A DNA stretch of 64,000 bases, taken from Clostridioides phage LIBA6276. Below are positions 17,514 through 39,298 of the stretch, in pieces. The position numbers were made by a program, and so were the translations under genes. The stretch is taken from the sequence record MF547662.1. One strand, written 5' to 3'. Each line of letters opens with the position of its first letter. The stretch's first letter is position 1. The notes under the pieces were generated by a model. That model did not search any database and was not told the origin of the DNA. It worked only from the letters and a program-made list of their open reading frames with translations.

Positions 17514-17873
17514 ATGGAAAATTTTAAAAAAGATTTTGTGAAAAGTATGGGTATAATTAAATCATCTGAAATATTTCAAGGAAATATATTAGAGAAAAAT
17601 GAGCAAAGACTTGAGATGATTGAATATACGAAGCGAGATATTAATTTACTGACTAAAATTAAACATCTTTTTGAAAATATAAATGAATGTAATTTACAAG
17701 ATGCACAATACATAATAGAAAATGAATTGTTTTATGAAAGAGTTTCAATTCATACAATAAATAAATATATAAATAAATTTGGTGATATAAATGATTTTAA
17801 ATATGCATATAGATTGAAAGCAAAAAACGGGTTTAGGAGGACTATGGATTATTTAGTTAGAAAAAAGCATTAA
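17514..17873 (+). CDS. hypothetical protein
   Basis: ATG 17514 after AGGGGGATG RBS; 119 aa. Confidence 0.3.
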   Translation: MENFKKDFVKSMGIIKSSEIFQGNILEKNEQRLEMIEYTKRDINLLTKIKHLFENINECNLQDAQYIIENELFYERVSIHTINKYINKFGDINDFKYAYRLKAKNGFRRTMDYLVRKKH

Positions 17874-29654: not shown

Positions 29655-32600
29655 ATGAAACGTGGAGGTAGTGTACTTCATGAGTATGGCGTCAGTTTAG
29701 GTGACACAGTGGGTATGATAACAGCAACAAATGAAGCGATACAAAATCCAGAAAAAGTAGGTAATGGTTTAAAAAGTGTCGCAATAAATTTAGCAGGTAT
29801 GAAAGTTTCAGCTGATGATGGTACACTTTCTTTAAATAAAACTGCAAAAGGCTTAAAGGAAATAGCTGGAATCACAATTTATAAAAATAAAGATACTGGC
29901 GAATTGAAGAATATGGTTCAGCTCTTAGATGAGTTGAAAGGCAAATGGGGAGAACTCAGAGAGGATGAACAAAAAGGATTGGCTGAAGCAATAGCAGGTA
30001 AGCAACAAGCAGCTATATTCCAATCCTTAATGGGTAATTATGAGACTTTTAAAGAAATAAGGGAAGAATTCAGTCAGGGGCTTCAATTTGGTTCGGCTGA
30101 GGCTGAAAACAAACAATATTTAGATAGTCTTGCAGGGCGTTTAAATGAGTTGAAAACAATATGGGCAGATATATTCCAAAATGTATTTAATTCAAATACA
30201 ACATATGGATTTTTAGATGGTTTAATATCTGTATCTAATGGAATAAATAGTGTTATAAAAACATTAGAAAGATTAAAATTAACAACACCAGCATTAATAG
30301 GAAGTTTTATGACTTTAAAAACGTTATTCTCTGGTATGGGAATGACAAATGGTACTAGAAATGTGGCTAGACTTATAAATCCTTTAAATATGATAGGAAC
30401 TCCTATTAAAGCTACAACTACAATACTACAATCATTTAGACATGCAGTAATGGCGGCAAATGTAGCTGGTGCTAATGGAGCAAATGTAATTACTAGAGCA
30501 GGAACAGGTTTGGGAGCATTAAGAAAAAGTTTATCTAGGACTTCTATTGGTATTGGAACATTAAATATAGCAACAAGTTTGTTGAACGGGGCTATGATAG
30601 GTTTGGCTACTTTTGCTATATCTAAAGGAATACAATGGATAGATGATACTATTCACAAGTATGAAAAATTAGCAGAAAAACAAAAAGAAGTTATTGGAAC
30701 TACTACAAGCGAGATAAGCTCCTTGCAACAAAAGAAAAAGAGTTTAGAAGGTATATCAGAAGAGTACAATAATTTAGCTAGTAAGACCGAAAAGACTGCT
30801 GATGAAACTGAAAGATTTAGCGAACTTAAACAACAAATTGCAGATATAGCACCAGAATTAGTATTGGGTGTAGATGAGAATAATGACCCTATTCTAAATA
30901 TGAGTGGTAACTTAGATGAGGTCATTAATAAATTAAGAAAGGCTATAGAAGAAAAAAATAAACTTTTAAAGTCTCAAGAAGATGAACTTGCAATAACTAC
31001 ATCAAAGACTGCACCAGATACAAAAAAAGACCTTGATAAAGAAAAGAAAAAACTTGATAAAGTTCTTGAAGATGAGCATAATTTATTTAAAAATGCTTTA
31101 AGTAAATCTAATTTTAAAGAACAAACAGAAGCATTAAAAAAGGCTTACAATCAACAAGAAACAGATTTTGCAGAACATCATCAAAAACTTCTTACTGAAT
31201 ATGAAAAATATAATGAAGAAGAAGAGGTAATGCAGAAAAGGGCGATTAATAGATTAACTAATTCTGATATATCTAAAACATATGCTAAACAATCTGAACA
31301 AAAGAAAAGTAAAATGAATGAGCTTGTAGCTAATATGAATTGGCATGACTATAGTGTAGGACAACAGAATAGCATTATAAGTGCTTTTGATAAAATAAGT
31401 GAGTCAATTCCTGTTGAAAAATTAGACCAGTGGAATAAGAAGATAACTGATGCTAACATAAATTATCAAGCATCTGGCGATATGAACCAATATACTAAGG
31501 AACTACAAGGTTTAGCAAATGAACTTCAAAAGCTAAGTGGTGGAAGTATAAGTGCTGATACTTGGCTTATTGGATTACAACAAGGTTTTTCTGGATTAGA
31601 CTTAGCCAGTATGAAATTACATACTTTCTTGAAAAGTTATGGTTCATCTTTAGCTGAACTTGAAAACAAAGACAGTCTTGCAATAAAGCTTAAAAATCAA
31701 TTTGATGCATTAAATGATTTTTCTCAAAATTTAGAAGTCAATGGTAAAATCAATGTAAAACTGCTTGAAGATATACAAAGTGGAGAAGCTGGTCAAGATT
31801 TACCACAACAACTAAAAGATATAATAAATGGATTCACATTTGGAGAAGATTCACAAATAGAAGCTCAGGCTCAATTAGCCCTACAAGTAACAACTACGTT
31901 GCAAAACGAAGGTCAATTATCTGATGATGTTGTTAAACAATTAAATGACTTATTTAAGGGTAAATTACAATTAACAGATGACATTCTTAAAAATGGACTA
32001 AAAATCAGTGATAAGTTACCTGCATTGCCAGGAAATATGGTTCAAGCATTAAATGAGCAATTTGCAAATGCTTTTACAGGAGACAATGCTCCTGAAATCA
32101 CACCTAGTGTAAATGGAGAAAAAGCTAAAAAGGAATTAAAAGAGTTAGAAAAATTCAAACAAGATACTTTTAAATCAGATAAAATTGTGACTGAAATTAA
32201 TAATAAAGGACTAGATTTCGCAAAAAAAGACTTGAGTGTATTAAAAGAACAGTTGGATAGATTTAAAAATGAAGATACAAAGTTGTCTTTTACTACAGAT
32301 TGTGCAGATGCTTTTAAAGATGTAAATTCTTTAGAGGAAGCTAGAAAAAAAATATCTGCTCCAATGAGTTTAAAATATGATATAGATGTAGATAAAAAAG
32401 GATTGACTGAAGCAAAAAAAGTCTATGATATTTTACCTGATAATCTCAAAAAAAAGATAGAAACAGAAGTAATAGGTATAGATAAATTAGACACATTACA
32501 AAACTTAATAGATAAAGCTCCAAATAAAAAAGAAACTATATTTGAAATAATTAATAAAAATCCAGATAAGCTAAATGAGATAGATGAAATTCTTAATAAC

Positions 32601-35600
32601 GTTCCAAATGATAAAAAGGAAGCTGTTATTGATTTTATAGTAAATAATTTAGACCAACTTGAAAAAGCTAAAAATGTACAAGAATTTATAAACAATTTAC
32701 CTCCAGAAATAAAAAAACAACTTGGAATAGAAGTTGAAGGAGGAGAAAATGCAGAGAAAACTGTTAATACAGTTCAAAATGCAGATGGAACTAAGGCTGA
32801 CCTTTTAGTAAATGCAGAAGTAAATGGAGAATCACAAGTAGTTGAATGCATAGAAACATTGGATAAGAATGGTAATAAAACATACACTCCTAATTTAAAT
32901 CCTCAAGTTAATAATAGTGAAAAAGTTGTTCAGTGCATGAGAATATTAGATGAATATGGAAATGAATCTTATATTCCAATTGTAAGTCCTCAAGTTACTA
33001 ATGAAGAAGGGCTTAACAGTACTAAACAAAAAATGGATGAGTTAGATAATAAAACAGTAACTTCAACTGTACAAATAAAGACAGAAGGAGAAACTGAAGT
33101 TGAACAAGCAACCAATTTTATAGAAAATACAAATCCAACTAAGGTTATTGAGTTATCCATAAACAACTCTGGTAAAGATGAAATTGACAATACAAAACAA
33201 AAGTTAGATGAACTTAATAATGAAAAAGCCACTCCTACTATTGAAGCTACAGGTGCAGAACAAGCATCCAAACAATTAAATCAATTATCACAAAAAGCAC
33301 AAGAAATTGGGCAAGGTAATTATCATATAAATGTTAGTACTTCAACTGAACAAGGGGCTAAGAATATTTCAGGACTTATAGCTAGAGTAAAACAATTCTT
33401 AGCTTTGAAAGTATCTACACTTGTATTTAGAACTGAAACTGCACAAGCAGCAAAAAATGTATCAGGTTTGTTAGCCAAAGTACAAAGTTATGTTAGCCGA
33501 TATGGTGGAAAAACTATAAAGACTACATTTAGTGCATTAACTGCAACTGCTGCAAAGAACATATCAGGGCTTATTAGGAAAATAGAGTCATTTAAATCAA
33601 ATTATGCAGGAAAAACATTCACTACTACATTTGTAACTAATAAAGTGACTAATAGTTCTGGTGGTGGAGGAGGAGGAAATAGTTCAGATAAGACCAATAA
33701 AACTGAACGTACCTCTGTTACTAATGTAACTCCAATTCCAGCTAATCTATTAGCTCAACCTAGAACATCAGAACCAGCACCAATAAGTGACGAAACTCCT
33801 GTAACACCAAAACCATCCTTATTCTCAAGAGCAGTATCAAGAGCCACATCCGCTTTCAAAGTAATCAAACCTAAAGTTACAATAAACAATGACACAATAG
33901 ACTCATCTGTAAAATATAGTATAGAATTATTTAAAGAGTTAGAAAATGCTATATCAGCAGTAACAAATGAAATAGCTCTATTAGACAAAAAAATGGAACA
34001 TGCTACAGGTGATGAGAAGATTAAATACTTACAGGAGCAAAATAAATTATTTGCTCAACAAAAAGATTTAATAAAACAACAACAAGATGGATATAAAGCT
34101 GAAAGTAACAGACTTAAAAATAGATTAAAAGAAAAGAAAATGGGCTTTAAGTTTGATGATACTGGAAATCTAACTAACTATGAAGAAAAGTTAATATCAA
34201 TAGAAAAAGAATTAGACAAATTAAATTCAAAGTCTGGTGACAAAGAAAATAAAAAAGATGAATCCAGAAAAAAAGAGTTGGAAGAAACTAAGAAAGTCCT
34301 TGAAGAATATATTAAAGTTACATTTACAGAACTGCCTAAATGTGAGCAAGAATGGGAAGAATACAATAATAAAATTAAAGAACACAATGAGGAGTTAAGG
34401 AAAGCACAAGAAGAAATGTGGAAACTTAATAAGAATTCCACATGGACTTCTATGTACAAAGATGTAGAGCAAGTAAATAATGAAATAGCAATGATAGATG
34501 TATTACTTAAAAATGCTACAGGTGATGAGCAGATAGAGTTGTTAGAAAAGAAAAAAGAGTTAATGGCCAAGAAGGCTAAAGAACTATCTGAAACAACAGC
34601 ATATCTTCAAGAAACACAAAAAGAGCTACAACAAAAGCTACAAGGCTATGGATTTACATTTAGAGATAATGGCGATATAACTAACTTCATTCAACATAAA
34701 AATCAACTTAAAAAGAACATGACTGATGAAGAATTTAAGAGAATGGAAGAGGCAGCAGAGGGATATTTGGATTTATTGATAAATAAAATACCTGATGCCA
34801 ATAAGGAAATTGCTGAATCTAAGGAAGAAATTGAAGCATTAAATAAAGAAATTCAAGATGCTTATAAAGACCAGCTTAAAGAAGCTCAAAGCCTACAAGA
34901 AAAAATTAGAGACATGTATAAAAAAGAGCTTGAAGAGAGACTTAAAGAAATAGATAAAGAAACTAAAGCTAAAATTGATTCTCTTAAAAAGCAACAAGAT
35001 GCTTACAATGATTCAAGAAAAGAAGCCAAATATAAAGATGATTATGAAGAACAACAAGATGTAATAAGTGATTTAGAAAAACAAATAGCAATAGCTGAAA
35101 GAGATAGTTCTTTAAGTGGTCAGAAGAAACTTAAAGATTTACAAAAACAATTAAAAGAAGAACAGAAGAAATTACAGGATTTAGTACAAGACCATGTAGA
35201 CGACCAAGTTAACGATATGTATGACAAGGAATCTGACAGACTACAAGAAGAAGCAGATAAGTTAAAAGAAGAGTTAGAGAAAAAATACTCAGATGAAAAT
35301 TTAGTTGATTTAATTAATGAAGCAATTTCAAGCGGTAAATTTGTAGGTCTTGATGGAGAGGTTAAGAAACTTCAAGATGCTATTATTGAATACATAAATA
35401 AATATGAAGATGGTATGTTGGCAATGGGTTCTGTCACTAAGCAGGAATGGCTCGATAGATTAAAAGAAGGTAAAGAGACATTAGAAGATATTAATGACAT
35501 ATTGGATGAATTAGATTTAAGTAAATTTGCTATGCCTAATTATAATCCTCCTTCAAATTCTCGTTCAAGAAGTACATCTCCAATATCAGCAGTTAATTAT

Positions 35601-35723
35601 AATTCACCATTTGTTGTTGTACAAGGGAATGTAACTAAAGATGTAATGCCTGAATTTGAAAAGAAGATGAGGAAAATGATTGAAGAAAATAACAAAAAAA
35701 TTATTTCTAATACTAGGTCTTAA
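29655..35723 (+). CDS. tail tape measure protein, C-terminal segment
   Basis: 2022 aa, long coiled-coil/low-complexity stretches, Gly-rich hydrophobic N-terminal region typical of TMP; frame is open from 29616. Confidence 0.6.
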   Translation: MKRGGSVLHEYGVSLGDTVGMITATNEAIQNPEKVGNGLKSVAINLAGMKVSADDGTLSLNKTAKGLKEIAGITIYKNKDTGELKNMVQLLDELKGKWGELREDEQKGLAEAIAGKQQAAIFQSLMGNYETFKEIREEFSQGLQFGSAEAENKQYLDSLAGRLNELKTIWADIFQNVFNSNTTYGFLDGLISVSNGINSVIKTLERLKLTTPALIGSFMTLKTLFSGMGMTNGTRNVARLINPLNMIGTPIKATTTILQSFRHAVMAANVAGANGANVITRAGTGLGALRKSLSRTSIGIGTLNIATSLLNGAMIGLATFAISKGIQWIDDTIHKYEKLAEKQKEVIGTTTSEISSLQQKKKSLEGISEEYNNLASKTEKTADETERFSELKQQIADIAPELVLGVDENNDPILNMSGNLDEVINKLRKAIEEKNKLLKSQEDELAITTSKTAPDTKKDLDKEKKKLDKVLEDEHNLFKNALSKSNFKEQTEALKKAYNQQETDFAEHHQKLLTEYEKYNEEEEVMQKRAINRLTNSDISKTYAKQSEQKKSKMNELVANMNWHDYSVGQQNSIISAFDKISESIPVEKLDQWNKKITDANINYQASGDMNQYTKELQGLANELQKLSGGSISADTWLIGLQQGFSGLDLASMKLHTFLKSYGSSLAELENKDSLAIKLKNQFDALNDFSQNLEVNGKINVKLLEDIQSGEAGQDLPQQLKDIINGFTFGEDSQIEAQAQLALQVTTTLQNEGQLSDDVVKQLNDLFKGKLQLTDDILKNGLKISDKLPALPGNMVQALNEQFANAFTGDNAPEITPSVNGEKAKKELKELEKFKQDTFKSDKIVTEINNKGLDFAKKDLSVLKEQLDRFKNEDTKLSFTTDCADAFKDVNSLEEARKKISAPMSLKYDIDVDKKGLTEAKKVYDILPDNLKKKIETEVIGIDKLDTLQNLIDKAPNKKETIFEIINKNPDKLNEIDEILNNVPNDKKEAVIDFIVNNLDQLEKAKNVQEFINNLPPEIKKQLGIEVEGGENAEKTVNTVQNADGTKADLLVNAEVNGESQVVECIETLDKNGNKTYTPNLNPQVNNSEKVVQCMRILDEYGNESYIPIVSPQVTNEEGLNSTKQKMDELDNKTVTSTVQIKTEGETEVEQATNFIENTNPTKVIELSINNSGKDEIDNTKQKLDELNNEKATPTIEATGAEQASKQLNQLSQKAQEIGQGNYHINVSTSTEQGAKNISGLIARVKQFLALKVSTLVFRTETAQAAKNVSGLLAKVQSYVSRYGGKTIKTTFSALTATAAKNISGLIRKIESFKSNYAGKTFTTTFVTNKVTNSSGGGGGGNSSDKTNKTERTSVTNVTPIPANLLAQPRTSEPAPISDETPVTPKPSLFSRAVSRATSAFKVIKPKVTINNDTIDSSVKYSIELFKELENAISAVTNEIALLDKKMEHATGDEKIKYLQEQNKLFAQQKDLIKQQQDGYKAESNRLKNRLKEKKMGFKFDDTGNLTNYEEKLISIEKELDKLNSKSGDKENKKDESRKKELEETKKVLEEYIKVTFTELPKCEQEWEEYNNKIKEHNEELRKAQEEMWKLNKNSTWTSMYKDVEQVNNEIAMIDVLLKNATGDEQIELLEKKKELMAKKAKELSETTAYLQETQKELQQKLQGYGFTFRDNGDITNFIQHKNQLKKNMTDEEFKRMEEAAEGYLDLLINKIPDANKEIAESKEEIEALNKEIQDAYKDQLKEAQSLQEKIRDMYKKELEERLKEIDKETKAKIDSLKKQQDAYNDSRKEAKYKDDYEEQQDVISDLEKQIAIAERDSSLSGQKKLKDLQKQLKEEQKKLQDLVQDHVDDQVNDMYDKESDRLQEEADKLKEELEKKYSDENLVDLINEAISSGKFVGLDGEVKKLQDAIIEYINKYEDGMLAMGSVTKQEWLDRLKEGKETLEDINDILDELDLSKFAMPNYNPPSNSRSRSTSPISAVNYNSPFVVVQGNVTKDVMPEFEKKMRKMIEENNKKIISNTRS

Positions 35724-35861
35724 TATATGTAATTGGTCTTTATTTATTATTCACTCATTTACTTACGTTTTATAATTTATAGTCAGATTTTTTTTGAAAA
35801 TATATATTTATCTAATAAAAAATATTGTTTATAAAAAACGTATTTATGATATAATAGTAAT

Positions 35862-36003
35862 ATAAATGATATAAATTTATATCATAAAGACATAAAAAAA
35901 GAGACTACAACTATTTGTGCTAGGGTGTCTCTTCATAAATAAGCGAAGTGTTAATTAGAGGAAGAATCACCTGAATTGCCGTTCGGGTGATTCTTAATTT
36001 TTT
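35862..36003 (+). ncRNA. candidate type I antitoxin sRNA (locus 1)
   Basis: TGATATAAT extended -10 at 35847-35855; rho-independent terminator GAATCACC..GGTGATTC + T-run 35964-36003; antisense to 3' end of toxin ORF. Confidence 0.35.
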
Positions 36004-36130
36004 GCAACGTTTTCTTAAACTCATCTATTTCTTTAAAGAGTCTATTTAAATTCTGAACCAACTTAATCAAACTAATAATTATAGTTGTAAGAAATGTTAT
36101 TATCGTTAACAAACAAATTAGATATTTCAT
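35951..36130 (-). CDS. small membrane peptide, type I toxin-like (59 aa)
   Basis: MKYLICLLTIITFLTTIIISLIKL.. TM helix + charged tail; GGAGGTG RBS; own promoter TTAACA-17-TGGTATAAT; long 5' UTR. Confidence 0.45.
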   Translation of the reverse strand: MKYLICLLTIITFLTTIIISLIKLVQNLNRLFKEIDEFKKTLQKIKNHPNGNSGDSSSN

Positions 36131-36391
36131 AATATCATATCACCTCCCCTCTTGATTTGACATGGGAAGGCTTATGTATATGAAGATTCACCCTAATAGT
36201 TTTTTTATGTAGTCTCTAAAAATATTATACCATAAATTACCAATATGTTAAATTTAATATTATATTGTCTACAATTGTAAAAGAATATTGTGTTCTAAGA
36301 AGTTATTCTATTAATAGTATAGCTTTTTTATTTTTCAATGAAGATAATGACAACATTGACTATTTTGATAATATTGGAGTATAATAGTAAT

Positions 36392-36545
36392 ATAAATGAT
36401 ATAAATTTATATCATAGGGACATAAAAAAGAGACTACAAACTATTTGCTGTAGGGTGTAGTTCTTAAAGTTAACAATAAAAAGAATAGATTTATGTATTA
36501 CTTTCAGAATCACTAGACCCGCCAGTCTGGTGATTCTTTAGTTTT
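36392..36545 (+). ncRNA. candidate type I antitoxin sRNA (locus 2)
   Basis: -10 TATAAT 36380-36385; terminator AGAATCAC..GTGATTCT + T-run at 36507-36545. Confidence 0.35.
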
Positions 36546-36652
36546 CTAATAGATGCTTTCAAGTTTAAGATTGCATCTATTAGCTTTGTCAAATGATTGA
36601 TTATTCTTGTAATCATAATTATCATTATTAAAAACAAAACTAAGTACTCCAT
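36491..36652 (-). CDS. small membrane peptide, type I toxin-like (53 aa), paralog of 35951-36130
   Basis: MEYLVLFLIMIIMITRIINHL...KNHQTGGSSDSESNT; GGGGTG RBS. Confidence 0.45.
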   Translation of the reverse strand: MEYLVLFLIMIIMITRIINHLTKLIDAILNLKASIRKLKNHQTGGSSDSESNT

Positions 36653-36910
36653 AGTCTCACCCCCTTTCTTACTGGGGATTTTAACTAAAGAGCCATCACC
36701 CTAATAGTCTAAACTGTAGTCTCTAAAAATATTATACCATAATTTTCCAATATGTTAAATTTAATATTATATTGACGACAGGAGTAGAATAAAGATATAA
36801 TACAGATAACAGAAAATTTAAAAATTTTACATAAGAATTACTACTTATCTATGCCACCTTAAAAAGTGGCTATTTTTCTATTCTGGTATATATTTAAGGA
36901 GGTGTTACAA

Positions 36911-37066
36911 ATGATAAATAATATAGAAGATTGTAAGCTTCTTATTGAGGCAGAAATAAGAATGAAAGATATAGATGAAAAAGAACTAATATCTCAAAGG
37001 GAGATTCTGAAAGACCTAAATATTAATGAAAAAGACCTTGAAGATATTGAAGTGAATTTTGAATAA
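36911..37066 (+). CDS. small acidic protein (51 aa)
   Basis: ATG 36911 after AAGGAGGTG; the six-frame ORF starts at 36866. Confidence 0.3.
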   Translation: MINNIEDCKLLIEAEIRMKDIDEKELISQREILKDLNINEKDLEDIEVNFE

Positions 37067-37201
37067 TGAAATGATTTATAATATACCTATTTTAAATATG
37101 TATTAGTTGATATCAGTAATCGTCTTTATCTAGTGATTTTTTATTTATTAACTGTAAACGAATCTGTTTTACAAAAAACGTATCTGTGGTATAATAAAAG
37201 T

Positions 37202-37307
37202 AAGGAATTTAATCTACTTAATACAAAGAGTGATTGTTTCCTTAAAGTTAATTAAAAATTAATTTATCTTTTGAAACCACTCTTATTGGCGTCTGAGTGG
37301 TTTTTTG
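37202..37307 (+). ncRNA. candidate type I antitoxin sRNA (locus 3)
   Basis: TGGTATAAT at 37187-37195; terminator AACCACTC..GAGTGGTT + T6 at 37275-37307. Confidence 0.35.
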
Positions 37308-37380
37308 CTTTATCATATATGTAACAAGCTATTAAACTTGTTGCAATATTTAGGCAAATATTAAACACTACTGTTTCCAT
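37264..37380 (-). CDS. type I toxin-like peptide (38 aa)
   Basis: METVVFNICLNIATSLIACYIYDKAKNHSDANKSGFKR: hydrophobic helix + YIYDK + basic tail; GGAGGTG RBS; paralog at 57552-57683. Confidence 0.5.
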   Translation of the reverse strand: METVVFNICLNIATSLIACYIYDKAKNHSDANKSGFKR

Positions 37381-37582
37381 AAATTCACCTCCTTATAAAA
37401 AAATAAAGCGAGGCTCACCTCCTTCCTTTGAAGAAGTAGGCTAAATACAGAAACAACCACTCTTAGCACTTTCGATTTAAAATTCCTTACTATACTAGAT
37501 TATACCATAATTTTACAATTAATAAAATATTTTAGCTCATCTTAATTGATGGGCTTTTCTAATACAAAGAAGGTGATAAAAT

Positions 37583-39298
37583 ATGCATTTTAATGTGAAT
37601 CTTAAACAGATAAAATCTGATTACACATTAACCATTCACAAGATGAACAAATCATTTTTAGGTCAAATTCCAATCAACTTTTTAAACTCGATAAAGCGGG
37701 AGCTTGGTGGAGTAGATGAAATACAACTGACCATTCCAAAATATATTACAGATAGATTTTTATTTAATAAAATAATAAATCCCATTTTTGAAGAAGTAAA
37801 AGAAGAACGTCTTATTTGTCTTAATAATAAAGAGTACTTTGTAATTAAGAATGTTGTAACAACAGATGATAAGTTAAAAGTAGTAACAGCTAAATCTAAA
37901 GAAGTTAAACTAGGAAAAATTGATGTGAATATTGAGGACTATGGATTACAGATGTTTACCAAAGATGAAGAAGCATCTATTATATCTCTTAATGATTATT
38001 TAAAACAAGAGACAGGCTGGAAACTTGGTTATGTGGATGATTCAATTGCTTATGAAACTGATAGTGAAGGTAATAAGAGAGAAAAGGTAAGATGGCAAGA
38101 AAGTATTAATTCTAACTGGTTAGACTATTTTAATAATGAACTAAAAGAACAATTTGAATGTATAGCTGATTTTGATACTTATAATAATTTAGTTAATTTG
38201 TATCATATAGATAGTTTTGGAGATAACATTCAGTTATATTTATCTCATGATAACTACATAAAATCACTTGAAAGAACTACAAATAGTGATGATATAGTAA
38301 CTAGACTGAAGCTTGAAGGTAGTGAAGATATGAATGTAATAGGAGCTACAGTTACAGGATATGATTACATTGAGAACTATTCTTATTTCTTAGACAATAA
38401 AGAAATGAGTGAAGAACTTAGTAGAGCTATAAAGAAATACCAAGAAATGAATGAAATAAGAGAGCCAATTTGGAGAGAACTAATAGATACAAAGCTTAAG
38501 AAGCAAAGAGAACGTGATAGTAAAAGCAACGAATGGCAAATGGTAATAGAGATGATAAGTAAGAAAAAAGATATAAAAAAGACATATGATAATCCACAGC
38601 ATAAAGATGAAATAAATTCAGCTAAAATAGCAGTAGAGATAAGTGAACTAGAAGATAAAAAAGTCATATTGGATGTTCAAATAAAACATTTAGAAGAAGA
38701 AATAGCTAAGTTAAATGAAAGTATAAAAGATATAAATATTCTTTGTAAGAGGGAGACTTCAACTGATGAGGATGGATATCTAATATTTAATGAGGTTCTA
38801 TTAGATGAATTAAATGAGTTCCTCTACTATGACACTTATACAAATGATGCTTTTTTAAAAGTTGAAGATTTAATAGCAGAAGGTAAAAGGCAATTAAGTT
38901 TGAAATGTATTCCAACACGAGAATGGACTCTGGATGTTATAAACTTCTTAGATAGAATTATAGATATTAATTTTAGACAGCATTGGAAGGGTGATTTGAG
39001 CTTAGGAGATATTATAGTGTTACATAGCAAAGAATCTAAAGAAGAAGAATTAGTATATTTTACATCTTTTACCCAGAATTTAAAAAACGGGAAGTTAGAT
39101 ACTTTAGAATTAACTTTAAGTAATAAAAAAATAAAAGAAGATGACAAAAGAACTATAGCTGATTATTTGACTAAAGCTGAACACGCAACAAGAACATTGA
39201 ACTCTAAAAGACATTTATTTATTCAGCAACAGAAGAAAAGAATTAACCTACCAGATGAATATATTCCTAAGAAAAATATACAAAAGGAGTTGATGTAG
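37583..39298 (+). CDS. putative distal tail protein (Dit-like)
   Basis: 571 aa; first gene after TMP/TA loci; RBS GAAGGTGATAAA. Confidence 0.4.
   Translation: MHFNVNLKQIKSDYTLTIHKMNKSFLGQIPINFLNSIKRELGGVDEIQLTIPKYITDRFLFNKIINPIFEEVKEERLICLNNKEYFVIKNVVTTDDKLKVVTAKSKEVKLGKIDVNIEDYGLQMFTKDEEASIISLNDYLKQETGWKLGYVDDSIAYETDSEGNKREKVRWQESINSNWLDYFNNELKEQFECIADFDTYNNLVNLYHIDSFGDNIQLYLSHDNYIKSLERTTNSDDIVTRLKLEGSEDMNVIGATVTGYDYIENYSYFLDNKEMSEELSRAIKKYQEMNEIREPIWRELIDTKLKKQRERDSKSNEWQMVIEMISKKKDIKKTYDNPQHKDEINSAKIAVEISELEDKKVILDVQIKHLEEEIAKLNESIKDINILCKRETSTDEDGYLIFNEVLLDELNEFLYYDTYTNDAFLKVEDLIAEGKRQLSLKCIPTREWTLDVINFLDRIIDINFRQHWKGDLSLGDIIVLHSKESKEEELVYFTSFTQNLKNGKLDTLELTLSNKKIKEDDKRTIADYLTKAEHATRTLNSKRHLFIQQQKKRINLPDEYIPKKNIQKELM

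Follow-up and report, generated by a model that had tools for sequence, protein, structure and literature searches.

Predicted type I toxin-antitoxin cassettes beside the tape measure gene of Clostridioides phage LIBA6276: two peptide families on a common RNA plan

The stretch of DNA analysed here, referred to below as the window, comprises 64,000 nucleotides (nt) of Clostridioides phage LIBA6276 (MF547662.1). Three small minus-strand open reading frames (ORFs), U1, U2 and U3, lie between its tail tape measure gene and the next tail gene, and a fourth of the same kind, U4, lies at 57.5 kb. The original prediction, made from the sequence alone, had placed three tandem type I toxin-antitoxin (TA)-like loci after the tape measure gene and another at 57.5 kb, and the four ORFs were recovered exactly there or very nearly so (Table 1). 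As it had also proposed, the peptides fall into two families: U1 and U2 (family 1) are 42% identical over their C-terminal 33 residues, while U3 and U4 (family 2) match the same NCBIfam and PHROG families. The ribosome-binding site and the separate promoter expected for each ORF were both located, the former as a strong Shine-Dalgarno (SD) sequence 7-9 nt from the ATG and the latter as a perfect, TG-extended TATAAT 84-124 nt upstream of it. All four peptides have a hydrophobic N-terminal segment and a net-positive tail; the hydrophobic peptide with a charged tail was thus found in all of them, but the extreme C-terminus of U1 and U2 is polar or acidic. The expectation that such ORFs fall below annotation cutoffs agrees with the record of Clostridioides phage LIBA2945, where units 1 to 3 are unannotated and a 156-nt plus-strand ORF (36911-37066) is the only one annotated between the tape measure gene and the next tail gene. 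The first two ORFs (U1 and U2) are hypothetical proteins in the annotation of phiCD211 and phiCDIF1296T. Window-wide tblastn and blastn searches returned no fifth copy.

Table 1. Features of the four cassettes (units 1 to 4; toxin ORFs U1 to U4, antitoxin RNAs AT1 to AT4) and of their surroundings in the window
Feature	Position	Strand	Remarks
Tail tape measure gene	29655..35723	+	2022-aa ORF; annotated as tape measure in phiCD211, phiCDIF1296T and CD161; upstream border of the island
AT1 promoter	35828..35855	+	TTTATA-N16-TG-TATAAT; conserved between units 1 and 2
AT1 antitoxin RNA	35862..36003	+	predicted, ~142 nt; fold z = -4.3; ends predicted
AT1 terminator hairpin	35962-35995	+	followed by T-run
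Unit 1 toxin mRNA	35893..36217	-	predicted, ~325 nt; 5' arm 36179-36217, 3' arm 35901-35937; 3' hairpin then U7
U1 toxin ORF	35951-36130	-	59 aa, MKYLICLLTI...; family 1, PHROG 5620
U1 SD	36140-36149	-	GGGGAGGTGA
U1 anti-SD	36164-36170	-	CCTTCCC
Unit 1 toxin -10 box	36224-36229	-	with TG
AT2 promoter	36356..36385	+	TTGACT-N18-TATAAT, without TG
AT2 antitoxin RNA	36392..36545	+	predicted, ~150 nt; fold z = -5.0
AT2 terminator hairpin	36506-36537	+	
Unit 2 toxin mRNA	36424..36724	-	predicted, ~300 nt; panhandle and SD/anti-SD hairpin
U2 toxin ORF	36491-36652	-	53 aa, MEYLVLFLIM...; family 1, PHROG 5620
U2 SD	36657-36665	-	GGGGGTGAG
Unit 2 toxin -10 box	36731-36736	-	with TG
Promoter and leader upstream of Phd fragment	36772..36880	+	promoter TTGACG-N18-TATAAT, 36772-36801
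Terminator-like hairpin in that leader	36853-36870	+	
51-aa acidic ORF	36911..37066	+	PHROG 13860; between units 2 and 3
AT3 promoter	37168..37195	+	TTTACA-N16-TG-TATAAT
AT3 antitoxin RNA	37202..37308	+	predicted, ~107 nt; fold z = -4.0
AT3 terminator hairpin	37274-37304	+	
Unit 3 toxin mRNA	37196..37492	-	predicted, ~297 nt; 5' arm 37450-37491, 3' arm 37199-37240
U3 toxin ORF	37264-37380	-	38 aa, ...YIYDKAKNHS...; family 2, PHROG 738; predicted short variant of the C. difficile type I toxin family
U3 SD	37386-37395	-	AAGGAGGTGA
Unit 3 toxin -10 box	37499-37504	-	TG-TATAAT
Next tail gene	37583-39298		from the LIBA2945 record; downstream of the island
AT4 -10 box	57489-57494	+	with TG
AT4 antitoxin RNA	57498..57622	+	predicted, ~125 nt; fold z = -6.0
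AT4 terminator hairpin	57590-57617	+	
Unit 4 toxin mRNA	57496..57767	-	predicted, ~272 nt; panhandle and SD/anti-SD hairpin CCTCACTTTC / GAAAGGAGG
U4 toxin ORF	57552-57683	-	43 aa, ...YIYDKLKSHS...; family 2
U4 SD	57690-57699	-	AAGGAGGTGA
Unit 4 toxin -10 box	57774-57779	-	with TG

The plus strand of each unit carries a convergent gene for a predicted antisense RNA, AT1 to AT4, and a Sigma-A promoter of its own, a rho-independent terminator and an overlap with the toxin 3' end are present in the sequence for all four. Between positions 35700 and 37600, 29 promoter-like and 6 terminator-like sites were found, against 15.6 +/- 3.3 and 0.2 +/- 0.4, respectively, in shuffled sequences. In 14 of the 14 loci examined, a TG-TATAAT lies 84-124 nt upstream of the toxin ATG and an antisense TATAAT lies 59-113 nt past the toxin stop, the latter TG-extended except in unit 2. 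The extended -10 element TGnTATAAT that had been read on the plus strand was accordingly present in units 1, 3 and 4 but not in unit 2, whose antisense promoter lacks the TG, while the stem-loop and T-run said to overlap the 3' end of each peptide gene was located within all four toxin ORFs, ~105-150 nt after the promoter. The terminators of AT3 and AT4, with loops of 12-13 nt, were read from the sequence, the automated scan having passed over them. A conserved plus-strand protein, which would have spoken against the original prediction, was looked for under the proposed small RNAs and none was found, no plus-strand ORF lying between antitoxin promoter and terminator in any unit. The 40-aa plus-strand ORF at 36338-36460 was rejected as such a protein since it begins before the AT2 promoter and unit 1 contains nothing equivalent, and the substitution pattern favours the minus-strand frame. 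An Rfam search of 35700-37600 at E <= 10 returned chance-level matches alone, all far under the gathering scores.

Comparison of units 1 and 2 showed ~90% DNA identity in both promoter regions and over the initial 40-67 nt of each transcript, AT1 and AT2 sharing 90% identity over their first 67 nt, whereas the coding part in the middle is divergent. A perfect 20-nt palindrome, ATGATATAAATTTATATCAT, stands at 35866-35885 and at 36396-36415, that is, at the extreme 5' end of AT1 and AT2; it lies beyond the terminator of the toxin mRNA, is absent from some variants (L021 and L039), and could act as a hairpin that stabilises the 5' end or as an operator for a protein.

We compared the peptides with known families. 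U4 and U3 matched NCBIfam NF047374 ("type I toxin-antitoxin system toxin") with E-values of 7.3e-15 (55.1 bits) and 5.2e-7 (30 bits), respectively, and by this similarity they are predicted to be divergent or short variants of that family, for which short toxins of 34-35 aa such as CD0904.1 and CD0956.3 are recognised in the literature (PMC7699646). Relatives of U4 were found by tblastn in 51 C. difficile phage records, including those of phiCD38-2, phiMMP04, phiC2 and phiCD6356, and toxin homologues are stated to occur in all C. difficile phages (PMC7699646). DNA similar to AT3 (~78% identity) lies in unannotated stretches of many C. difficile plasmids of ~9-42 kb, mostly of ~33 kb. Toxicity, rescue by the antitoxin and a role in prophage maintenance have been published for this family (PMC7699646, PMC6563280). 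The text supplements of Peltier 2020 make no mention of phiCD211, 1296T or LIBA2945, and units 3 and 4, ordinary members of the known family, may have been catalogued before.

The dimensions of the predicted transcripts were also compared with those of published loci. Rapid amplification of cDNA ends (RACE) at CD0956.2/RCd10 and CD2517.1/RCd8 gave toxin mRNAs of 298-306 nt with 5' untranslated regions (UTRs) of 83-88 nt and antitoxins of 130-140 nt; the CD0956.2 mRNA is 298 nt long, its 3' end is the RCd10 start site, and RCd10 is 134 nt long (PMC5961336). In the window, where all transcript ends are predicted, the toxin mRNAs would be 272-325 nt long with 5' UTRs of 72-111 nt, and the antisense RNAs, of ~105-150 nt, would lie wholly or mostly under the 3' ends of the toxin mRNAs; the proportions predicted for units 3 and 4 are the same as those of the RACE-mapped C. 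difficile loci. The likeness to the type I TA layout of C. difficile prophages, on which the original prediction had relied, was supported by the NF047374 homology of units 3 and 4 and by the agreement of the predicted ends with the RACE maps.

In phiCD24-1, an unrelated 44-kb phage, a family-2 toxin gene (17573-17722) lies, in the orientation of the structural genes, between a 5.5-kb ORF and a gene for a tail component; the 5.5-kb ORF, annotated as of unknown function, is probably the tape measure gene, judging from its size and position.

The results for U1 and U2 were different. Neither had a match in Pfam, NCBIfam (including NF047374 at E <= 10) or PADLOC, none of the type I toxin families of Pfam (Fst, Hok, Ldr, TxpA and others) was returned for any of U1-U4 at E <= 10, and PHROG 5620, which contains U1 and U2, has no assigned function. 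Alignment of the two family profiles with hhalign gave a probability of 17% over 15 columns, confined to the K-x-K-N-H motif, and we make no claim of protein homology between families 1 and 2 on such a score. Among seven U1 variants, 21 synonymous and 17 non-synonymous changes were counted (~20% synonymous being expected at random), with no frameshifts or stops and with worse scores in the other frames, which shows purifying selection on the minus-strand ORF; U2 is 98-100% identical in six C. difficile plasmid records.

An exhaustive hidden Markov model search with family 1 against 1.84 billion representatives returned six clusters only, four of them distant (37-40 bits), while a word-indexed protein search with U1 returned two near-identical proteins only and degenerate hairpin-pattern scans of genome, viral and metagenome collections returned C. 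difficile U1-like copies only. Family 1 outside Clostridioides therefore amounts to four metagenomic or assembly loci, those of SRR29845385, SRR27784490, JGI 3300014678 and GCA_025475735.2. The distant members share a hydrophobic N-terminus, an amphipathic middle and a K-I/L-K/R-N-H/R-P-N/D-G...D tail, and adjoin helix-turn-helix repressors, integrase and Fic genes, or ordinary chromosomal genes. Their loci keep the anti-SD hairpin, the hairpin at the ORF 3' end and the arm complementarity described below; the toxin-side promoter is present in the contigs that are complete on the toxin 5' side, and the antisense promoter is clear in L023 and L025 only, being weak or unclear in L026 and L028. 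We consider units 1 and 2 best described as a putative new toxin family within a known kind of system.

Inverted repeats returned by a repeat finder correspond to the toxin transcript start and the antitoxin start of the same unit (for example 37199-37240/37450-37491 and 35921-35937/36179-36195), and through them the 5' end of the toxin mRNA and the 3' UTR of the same molecule are complementary. The minimum free energy (MFE) folds joined the 5' and 3' ends, as a panhandle, in four of the four predicted mRNAs, with z-scores of -7.2 (T1, unit 1), -7.8 (T2), -7.7 (T3) and -10.9 (T4). The energy of the arm duplex was -42.2 kcal/mol in unit 1, compared with -12.6 +/- 3.2 kcal/mol for its shuffles, and -36.7, -41.9 and -43.8 kcal/mol in units 2, 3 and 4, respectively. 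Cognate 5'/3' duplexes ranged from -35 to -42 kcal/mol in six family-1 lineages and from -32 to -50 kcal/mol in twelve family-2 loci, while shuffled arms gave -11 to -17 kcal/mol and pairs taken across sequence groups were clearly weaker than cognate ones. The arm sequences vary among lineages and their complementarity is kept. When the transition mismatches of the arms were read in the toxin sense, 32 were of the G.U type and 8 of the A.C type (binomial p = 1.8e-4), a bias that favours pairing within the toxin-strand RNA over a repeat at the DNA level. With few and related loci, the evidence that covariation conserves the predicted panhandle in both families is good without being definitive.

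It is conceivable that the flanking repeats act as DNA, for example as the terminal repeats of a small mobile cassette, with the RNA panhandle as a by-product. The cassettes do behave as modules, occurring in many contexts and orders (as single units and, in CD161, with units swapped), and they are ~300-bp units bounded by imperfect ~40-bp repeats. The G.U bias in the toxin-sense RNA would not be expected of such repeats, however; these begin exactly at both predicted transcription start sites, and the published 3' end of the CD0956.2 mRNA is the RCd10 start site (PMC5961336). We hold a DNA-level role to be highly improbable and retain the RNA panhandle. A long-distance interaction between the 5' and 3' ends is a recognised element of type I toxin mRNAs (PMC8594479); the parts of Maikova 2018 (PMC5961336) and Peltier 2020 (PMC7699646) that were searched contain no mention of a 5'-3' panhandle.

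The MFE folds also paired the SD with an upstream anti-SD, as CCUUCCC/GGGGAGG in T1, AUCCCC/GGGGGU (DNA ATCCCC / GGGGGT) in T2 and CCUCACUUUC/GAAAGGAGG in T4, and the anti-SD covaries among the family-1 loci. In T3 the picture is complicated by a duplicated SD-like element. The 5' UTR of unit 3 (37381-37430) has a 28-nt insertion relative to unit 4, with an SD-like copy, GGAAGGAGGTGAG, upstream of the real AAGGAGGTGAA and an anti-SD-like GCCTCGCTTT between the two; the duplicated SD may be a decoy or a switch. The automated scan returned no minus-strand terminators, and the 3' hairpins proposed for the toxin mRNAs have large loops and modest stability.

In some relatives an in-frame ATG in the 5' UTR of unit 1 lengthens the ORF to 68-74 aa (MYISLP...), while in the window (36131-36175) this ATG opens a mini-ORF of 7 codons that ends in the SD. 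The start of U1 is likely the SD-proximal ATG at 36130.

Covariation in the antisense hairpin was analysed on ten distinct family-1 sequences, for a 14-bp hairpin read in the antitoxin sense. The hairpin was 94.3% paired and 9 of its 14 pairs had changed on both sides, values reached by 0/500 shuffles, while controls slid along the alignment dropped to 33-52% paired. Eleven cells were G.U or U.G in the antitoxin sense, where the toxin strand would have A.C mismatches, which indicates that the hairpin is selected on the plus strand, as an antitoxin terminator would be. The antitoxin hairpins cover the codons of the most conserved motif of the peptides, K-N-H-P...S-G-D in family 1 and K-N/S-H-S...K-S-G-W/F in family 2, and in family 2 the invariant H-S and S-G residues fall on the two arms of the terminator. 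In one distant family-1 member the arms had changed together, from CAC to CGU and from GUG to ACG, and K-N-H...S-G-D had become R-N-R...Q-D-D, the compensatory changes altering residues (H to R, G to D). Much of the conserved "protein" motif of either family, we infer, owes its sequence to the antisense hairpin; an antisense terminator lying over a conserved peptide motif would be a clean example of RNA structure constraining protein sequence.

The natural variation resembles that of TA systems. In phiCD211, phiCDIF1296T and pZ1322PCD0028-2, a clean 164-bp deletion within unit 3 (37354-37517) takes the toxin start, the SD, the 5' UTR and the promoter and leaves the AT3 gene intact, as an orphan antitoxin. 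Two ~300-kb replicons, of C. difficile BI1 and of Clostridioides sp. ES-W-0016-02, carry an AT1-like gene with its own TG-extended promoter and keep just the last ~33 codons (~100 nt) of a family-1 toxin. These copies (NC_017177.1, L007 1480-1654; CP061362.1, L008 1497-1653) adjoin DUF4116 and NERD genes, and each could be an anti-addiction copy or a relic. Among the loci compared, no intact toxin was found without its antisense gene.

Relatives differ in what they carry between the tape measure gene and the tail gene, and this slot, a variable island, is a TA hotspot. Unit 1 stands alone in pCD1602_4 and pCd18_2 and unit 3 alone in ES-S-0173-01, the order of units 1 and 2 is swapped in CD161, a complete Phd/YefM-RelE/ParE pair occupies the same slot in pCd18_2, and a SocA-domain antitoxin gene lies just upstream of it in FDAARGOS_1528 and Z1322PCD0028. 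In the window, the 51-aa acidic ORF between units 2 and 3 had no match in Pfam, NCBIfam or PADLOC, but its identity to the Phd/YefM antitoxin of pCd18_2, where RelE/ParE follows, is 71% over residues 61-111. No RelE/ParE gene follows the 51-aa ORF, and this similarity identifies it as an orphan, truncated Phd/YefM antitoxin of which the C-terminal half only is left. In relatives, the leader upstream of this ORF stays beside family-1 units even where the ORF itself has been lost.

Such variants could suggest that the cassettes no longer function in this phage and are relics in decay: relatives contain truncated unit 3 toxins and truncated unit 1 copies, and the neighbouring Phd gene is itself a fragment. 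Here, however, no ORF, SD, promoter or antisense gene of the four units is damaged, U1 shows purifying selection and U2 is 98-100% conserved in six plasmid records, so that we regard decay as very unlikely.

For units 1 and 2 the product itself could be of another kind, a non-toxin membrane protein serving superinfection exclusion, lysis modulation or anti-defence and tuned by a cis-antisense RNA. No homology to validated toxins was detected for U1 and U2, their polar/acidic tail differs from the lysine-rich tails of known C. difficile toxins, and the lack of an assigned function for PHROG 5620 leaves room for this. Yet the arrangement of promoter, UTR, anti-SD, ORF and convergent small RNA, together with the panhandle, is the same as at validated loci, antitoxin-only remnants with truncated ORFs occur on other replicons, the slot otherwise holds TA genes, and SD sequestration with a closed mRNA is a typical safeguard for a toxic product. 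A non-toxin role thus appears distinctly unlikely, and U1 and U2 are treated here as predicted toxins.

The phage in question belongs to a group of plasmid-like phages. By megablast, positions 35700-37600 are 100% identical, at the same coordinates, to Clostridioides phage LIBA2945 (MF547663.1) and 97.5% identical to phiCD211, phiCDIF1296T and AR1086-1. The LIBA-2945 isolate carries a phage identical to phiCD5763, a C. difficile siphovirus described as "plasmidial", with a circular, extrachromosomal genome of 132.5 kb (PMC5786514). Phages like phiCD211 occur as ~130-kb plasmids in many C. difficile lineages.

We propose that the three cassettes of the island and the one at 57.5 kb are type I TA cassettes which stabilise the plasmid-like prophage as addiction modules, a reading to which we give a probability of about 0.8. 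Each cassette would produce a minus-strand toxin mRNA of ~270-325 nt, encoding a peptide of 38-59 aa with one N-terminal membrane helix, and a highly structured, convergent plus-strand RNA of ~105-150 nt that matches the 3' end of the toxin ORF and the 3' UTR with perfect complementarity. The toxin mRNA would be made constitutively, and the panhandle and the upstream anti-SD hairpin would keep it closed, stable and poorly translated, the closed MFE folds giving indirect support for a stable mRNA. Because its complementarity is confined to the ORF 3' end and the 3' UTR, the antisense RNA cannot mask the ribosome-binding site. It would act at the 3' end, where a long duplex would lead to decay and/or refolding, as proposed for the RCd antitoxins (PMC5961336). 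The 5' half of the antisense RNA is nearly a copy of the 5' end of the toxin mRNA and, by pairing perfectly with the 3' arm, would displace that end. On loss of the episomal phage the labile antisense RNA would decay first, and the stable toxin mRNA would then be translated, with growth arrest or death as the result. Such post-segregational killing would stabilise the phage-plasmid, a role that has been shown for the homologous modules of phiCD630-1 (PMC7699646). The analysis itself shows the ORFs, the signals, the homology, purifying selection, covariation and the deletion pattern; we infer the transcripts, the toxicity of the peptides, the mode of action of the antitoxins and the role in maintenance.

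A wider proposal can be made tentatively, though we are inclined to doubt it as a whole: PHROG 5620 would be an unrecognised family of type I toxins, and both families would share the mechanism of panhandle and 5'-end displacement as well as a K-N/S-H...S-G motif dictated by the hairpin. If this is true, displacement of the 5' end from the 3' arm would expose the toxin mRNA to decay. The panhandle together with mimicry of the mRNA 5' end would offer a hypothesis for how 3'-overlapping antitoxins control toxins whose ribosome-binding site is beyond their reach.

Several observations weigh against the addiction-module interpretation or parts of it. U1 and U2 have no significant protein similarity to any known type I toxin, and their lysines lie in the middle of the peptide, the last 10-12 residues being polar or acidic and not lysine-rich. 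The scores of U3 (30 bits) and U4 (55.1 bits) are under the curated equivalog cutoff of NF047374, which is 60 bits, and no Rfam model fits the RNAs. The minus-strand 3' hairpins are weak, from -8 to -10 kcal/mol with z-scores of -1.5 to -2.8 (-10.2 kcal/mol for that of unit 1), which makes the 3' ends of the mRNAs uncertain. The loci used for covariation are few and mutually related, and the cases of natural deletion are few.

Abortive infection or phage exclusion could be the main role of the cassettes, an incoming phage stopping host transcription and thereby freeing the toxin. This would be compatible with addiction. Exclusion is known for type I and other TA systems, as for hok/sok against T4 (PMC6563280), and the island varies like defence hotspots, with SocA-domain and Phd/RelE genes nearby in relatives. 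PADLOC returned no match, however, prophage maintenance is the only role shown experimentally for the homologous family (PMC7699646), and four cassettes on an episomal prophage suit addiction, so that exclusion as the main role seems to us rather unlikely and addiction is preferred.

On computational grounds, then, the type I TA interpretation is supported, and it brings nothing categorically new. Four type I TA cassettes and a type II remnant in a recombination-prone slot would give a concrete explanation for the stability of the phage-plasmid. With the family-1 peptides, the type I repertoire of C. difficile, which already serves as a counter-selection tool for genome editing, would gain a second toxin family.

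The surroundings of unit 4 were also inspected. Collinearity with MF547663.1 holds to 49546, and unit 4 is at 57405-57533 there and at 57555-57683 here, an offset of 150 nt that suggests an insertion, a deletion or a difference in repeat number near the glycine-rich or tail fibre genes. Its neighbours are a 614-aa minus-strand ORF (57866-59710) and a 73-aa plus-strand membrane ORF (57223-57444). Pfam returned nothing for either; of the two, the 614-aa ORF alone was scanned with PADLOC, again with no match. The 614-aa ORF, which converges on unit 4, could be another accessory or defence gene.

Comparison with known systems places the cassettes closest to the type I TA loci of C. difficile, namely CD0956.2-RCd10, CD2907.1-RCd9, CD2517.1-RCd8, CD0977.1-RCd11, CD0904.1-RCd13 and CD0956.3-RCd14 (PMC5961336, PMC7699646). 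Units 3 and 4 share with these their homologous toxins (NF047374, with the K-N/S-H-S...K-S-G-W/F motif), Sigma-A-type promoters on both strands, convergent transcripts, a location in C. difficile prophages, a predicted antitoxin of ~105-125 nt under the 3' end of the toxin mRNA and a predicted 5' UTR of ~84-111 nt. Units 1 and 2 share all the RNA-level features of the loci in Maikova 2018 and Peltier 2020, but their toxins show no detectable homology and are longer, at 53-59 aa, with an amphipathic middle and a polar/acidic end, and AT1 and AT2, unlike the RCd antitoxins, have an extra 5' extension of ~38 nt with the 20-nt palindrome. The host element also differs, being a 132-kb episomal phage here whereas the known C. 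difficile modules lie in an integrated prophage of the phiCD630 type. The type II remnant, in comparison with Phd/YefM-RelE/ParE systems, is without the N-terminal 60 residues of the antitoxin and without the RelE/ParE toxin gene.

The prophage TA systems of Bacillus subtilis with a 3' overlap are txpA/RatA (skin), bsrG/SR4 and yonT/SR6 (SPbeta) (PMC6563280). They and the cassettes described here have in common a convergent arrangement, an antitoxin that falls on the mRNA 3' end far from the ribosome-binding site, a sequestered SD, a prophage location and a small membrane toxin with a single helix, although the toxins here have no sequence similarity to the B. subtilis type I toxins in Pfam at E <= 10. 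With RatA and SR4, a long duplex at the 3' end of the toxin mRNA triggers decay and/or refolding. To our knowledge, an antitoxin that mimics the mRNA 5' end of a panhandle is not among the mechanisms described for B. subtilis.

The hok/Sok system of plasmid R1 and aapA1/IsoA1 of Helicobacter pylori have toxin families unrelated to those found here, and Gram-negative hosts. Like the predicted panhandle, they close the full-length mRNA by pairing its 5' end with its 3' end. In hok and aapA1, however, the antitoxin targets the 5' or translation-initiation region and trimming of the 3' end activates the mRNA, whereas the antitoxins predicted here would target the 3' arm of the panhandle.

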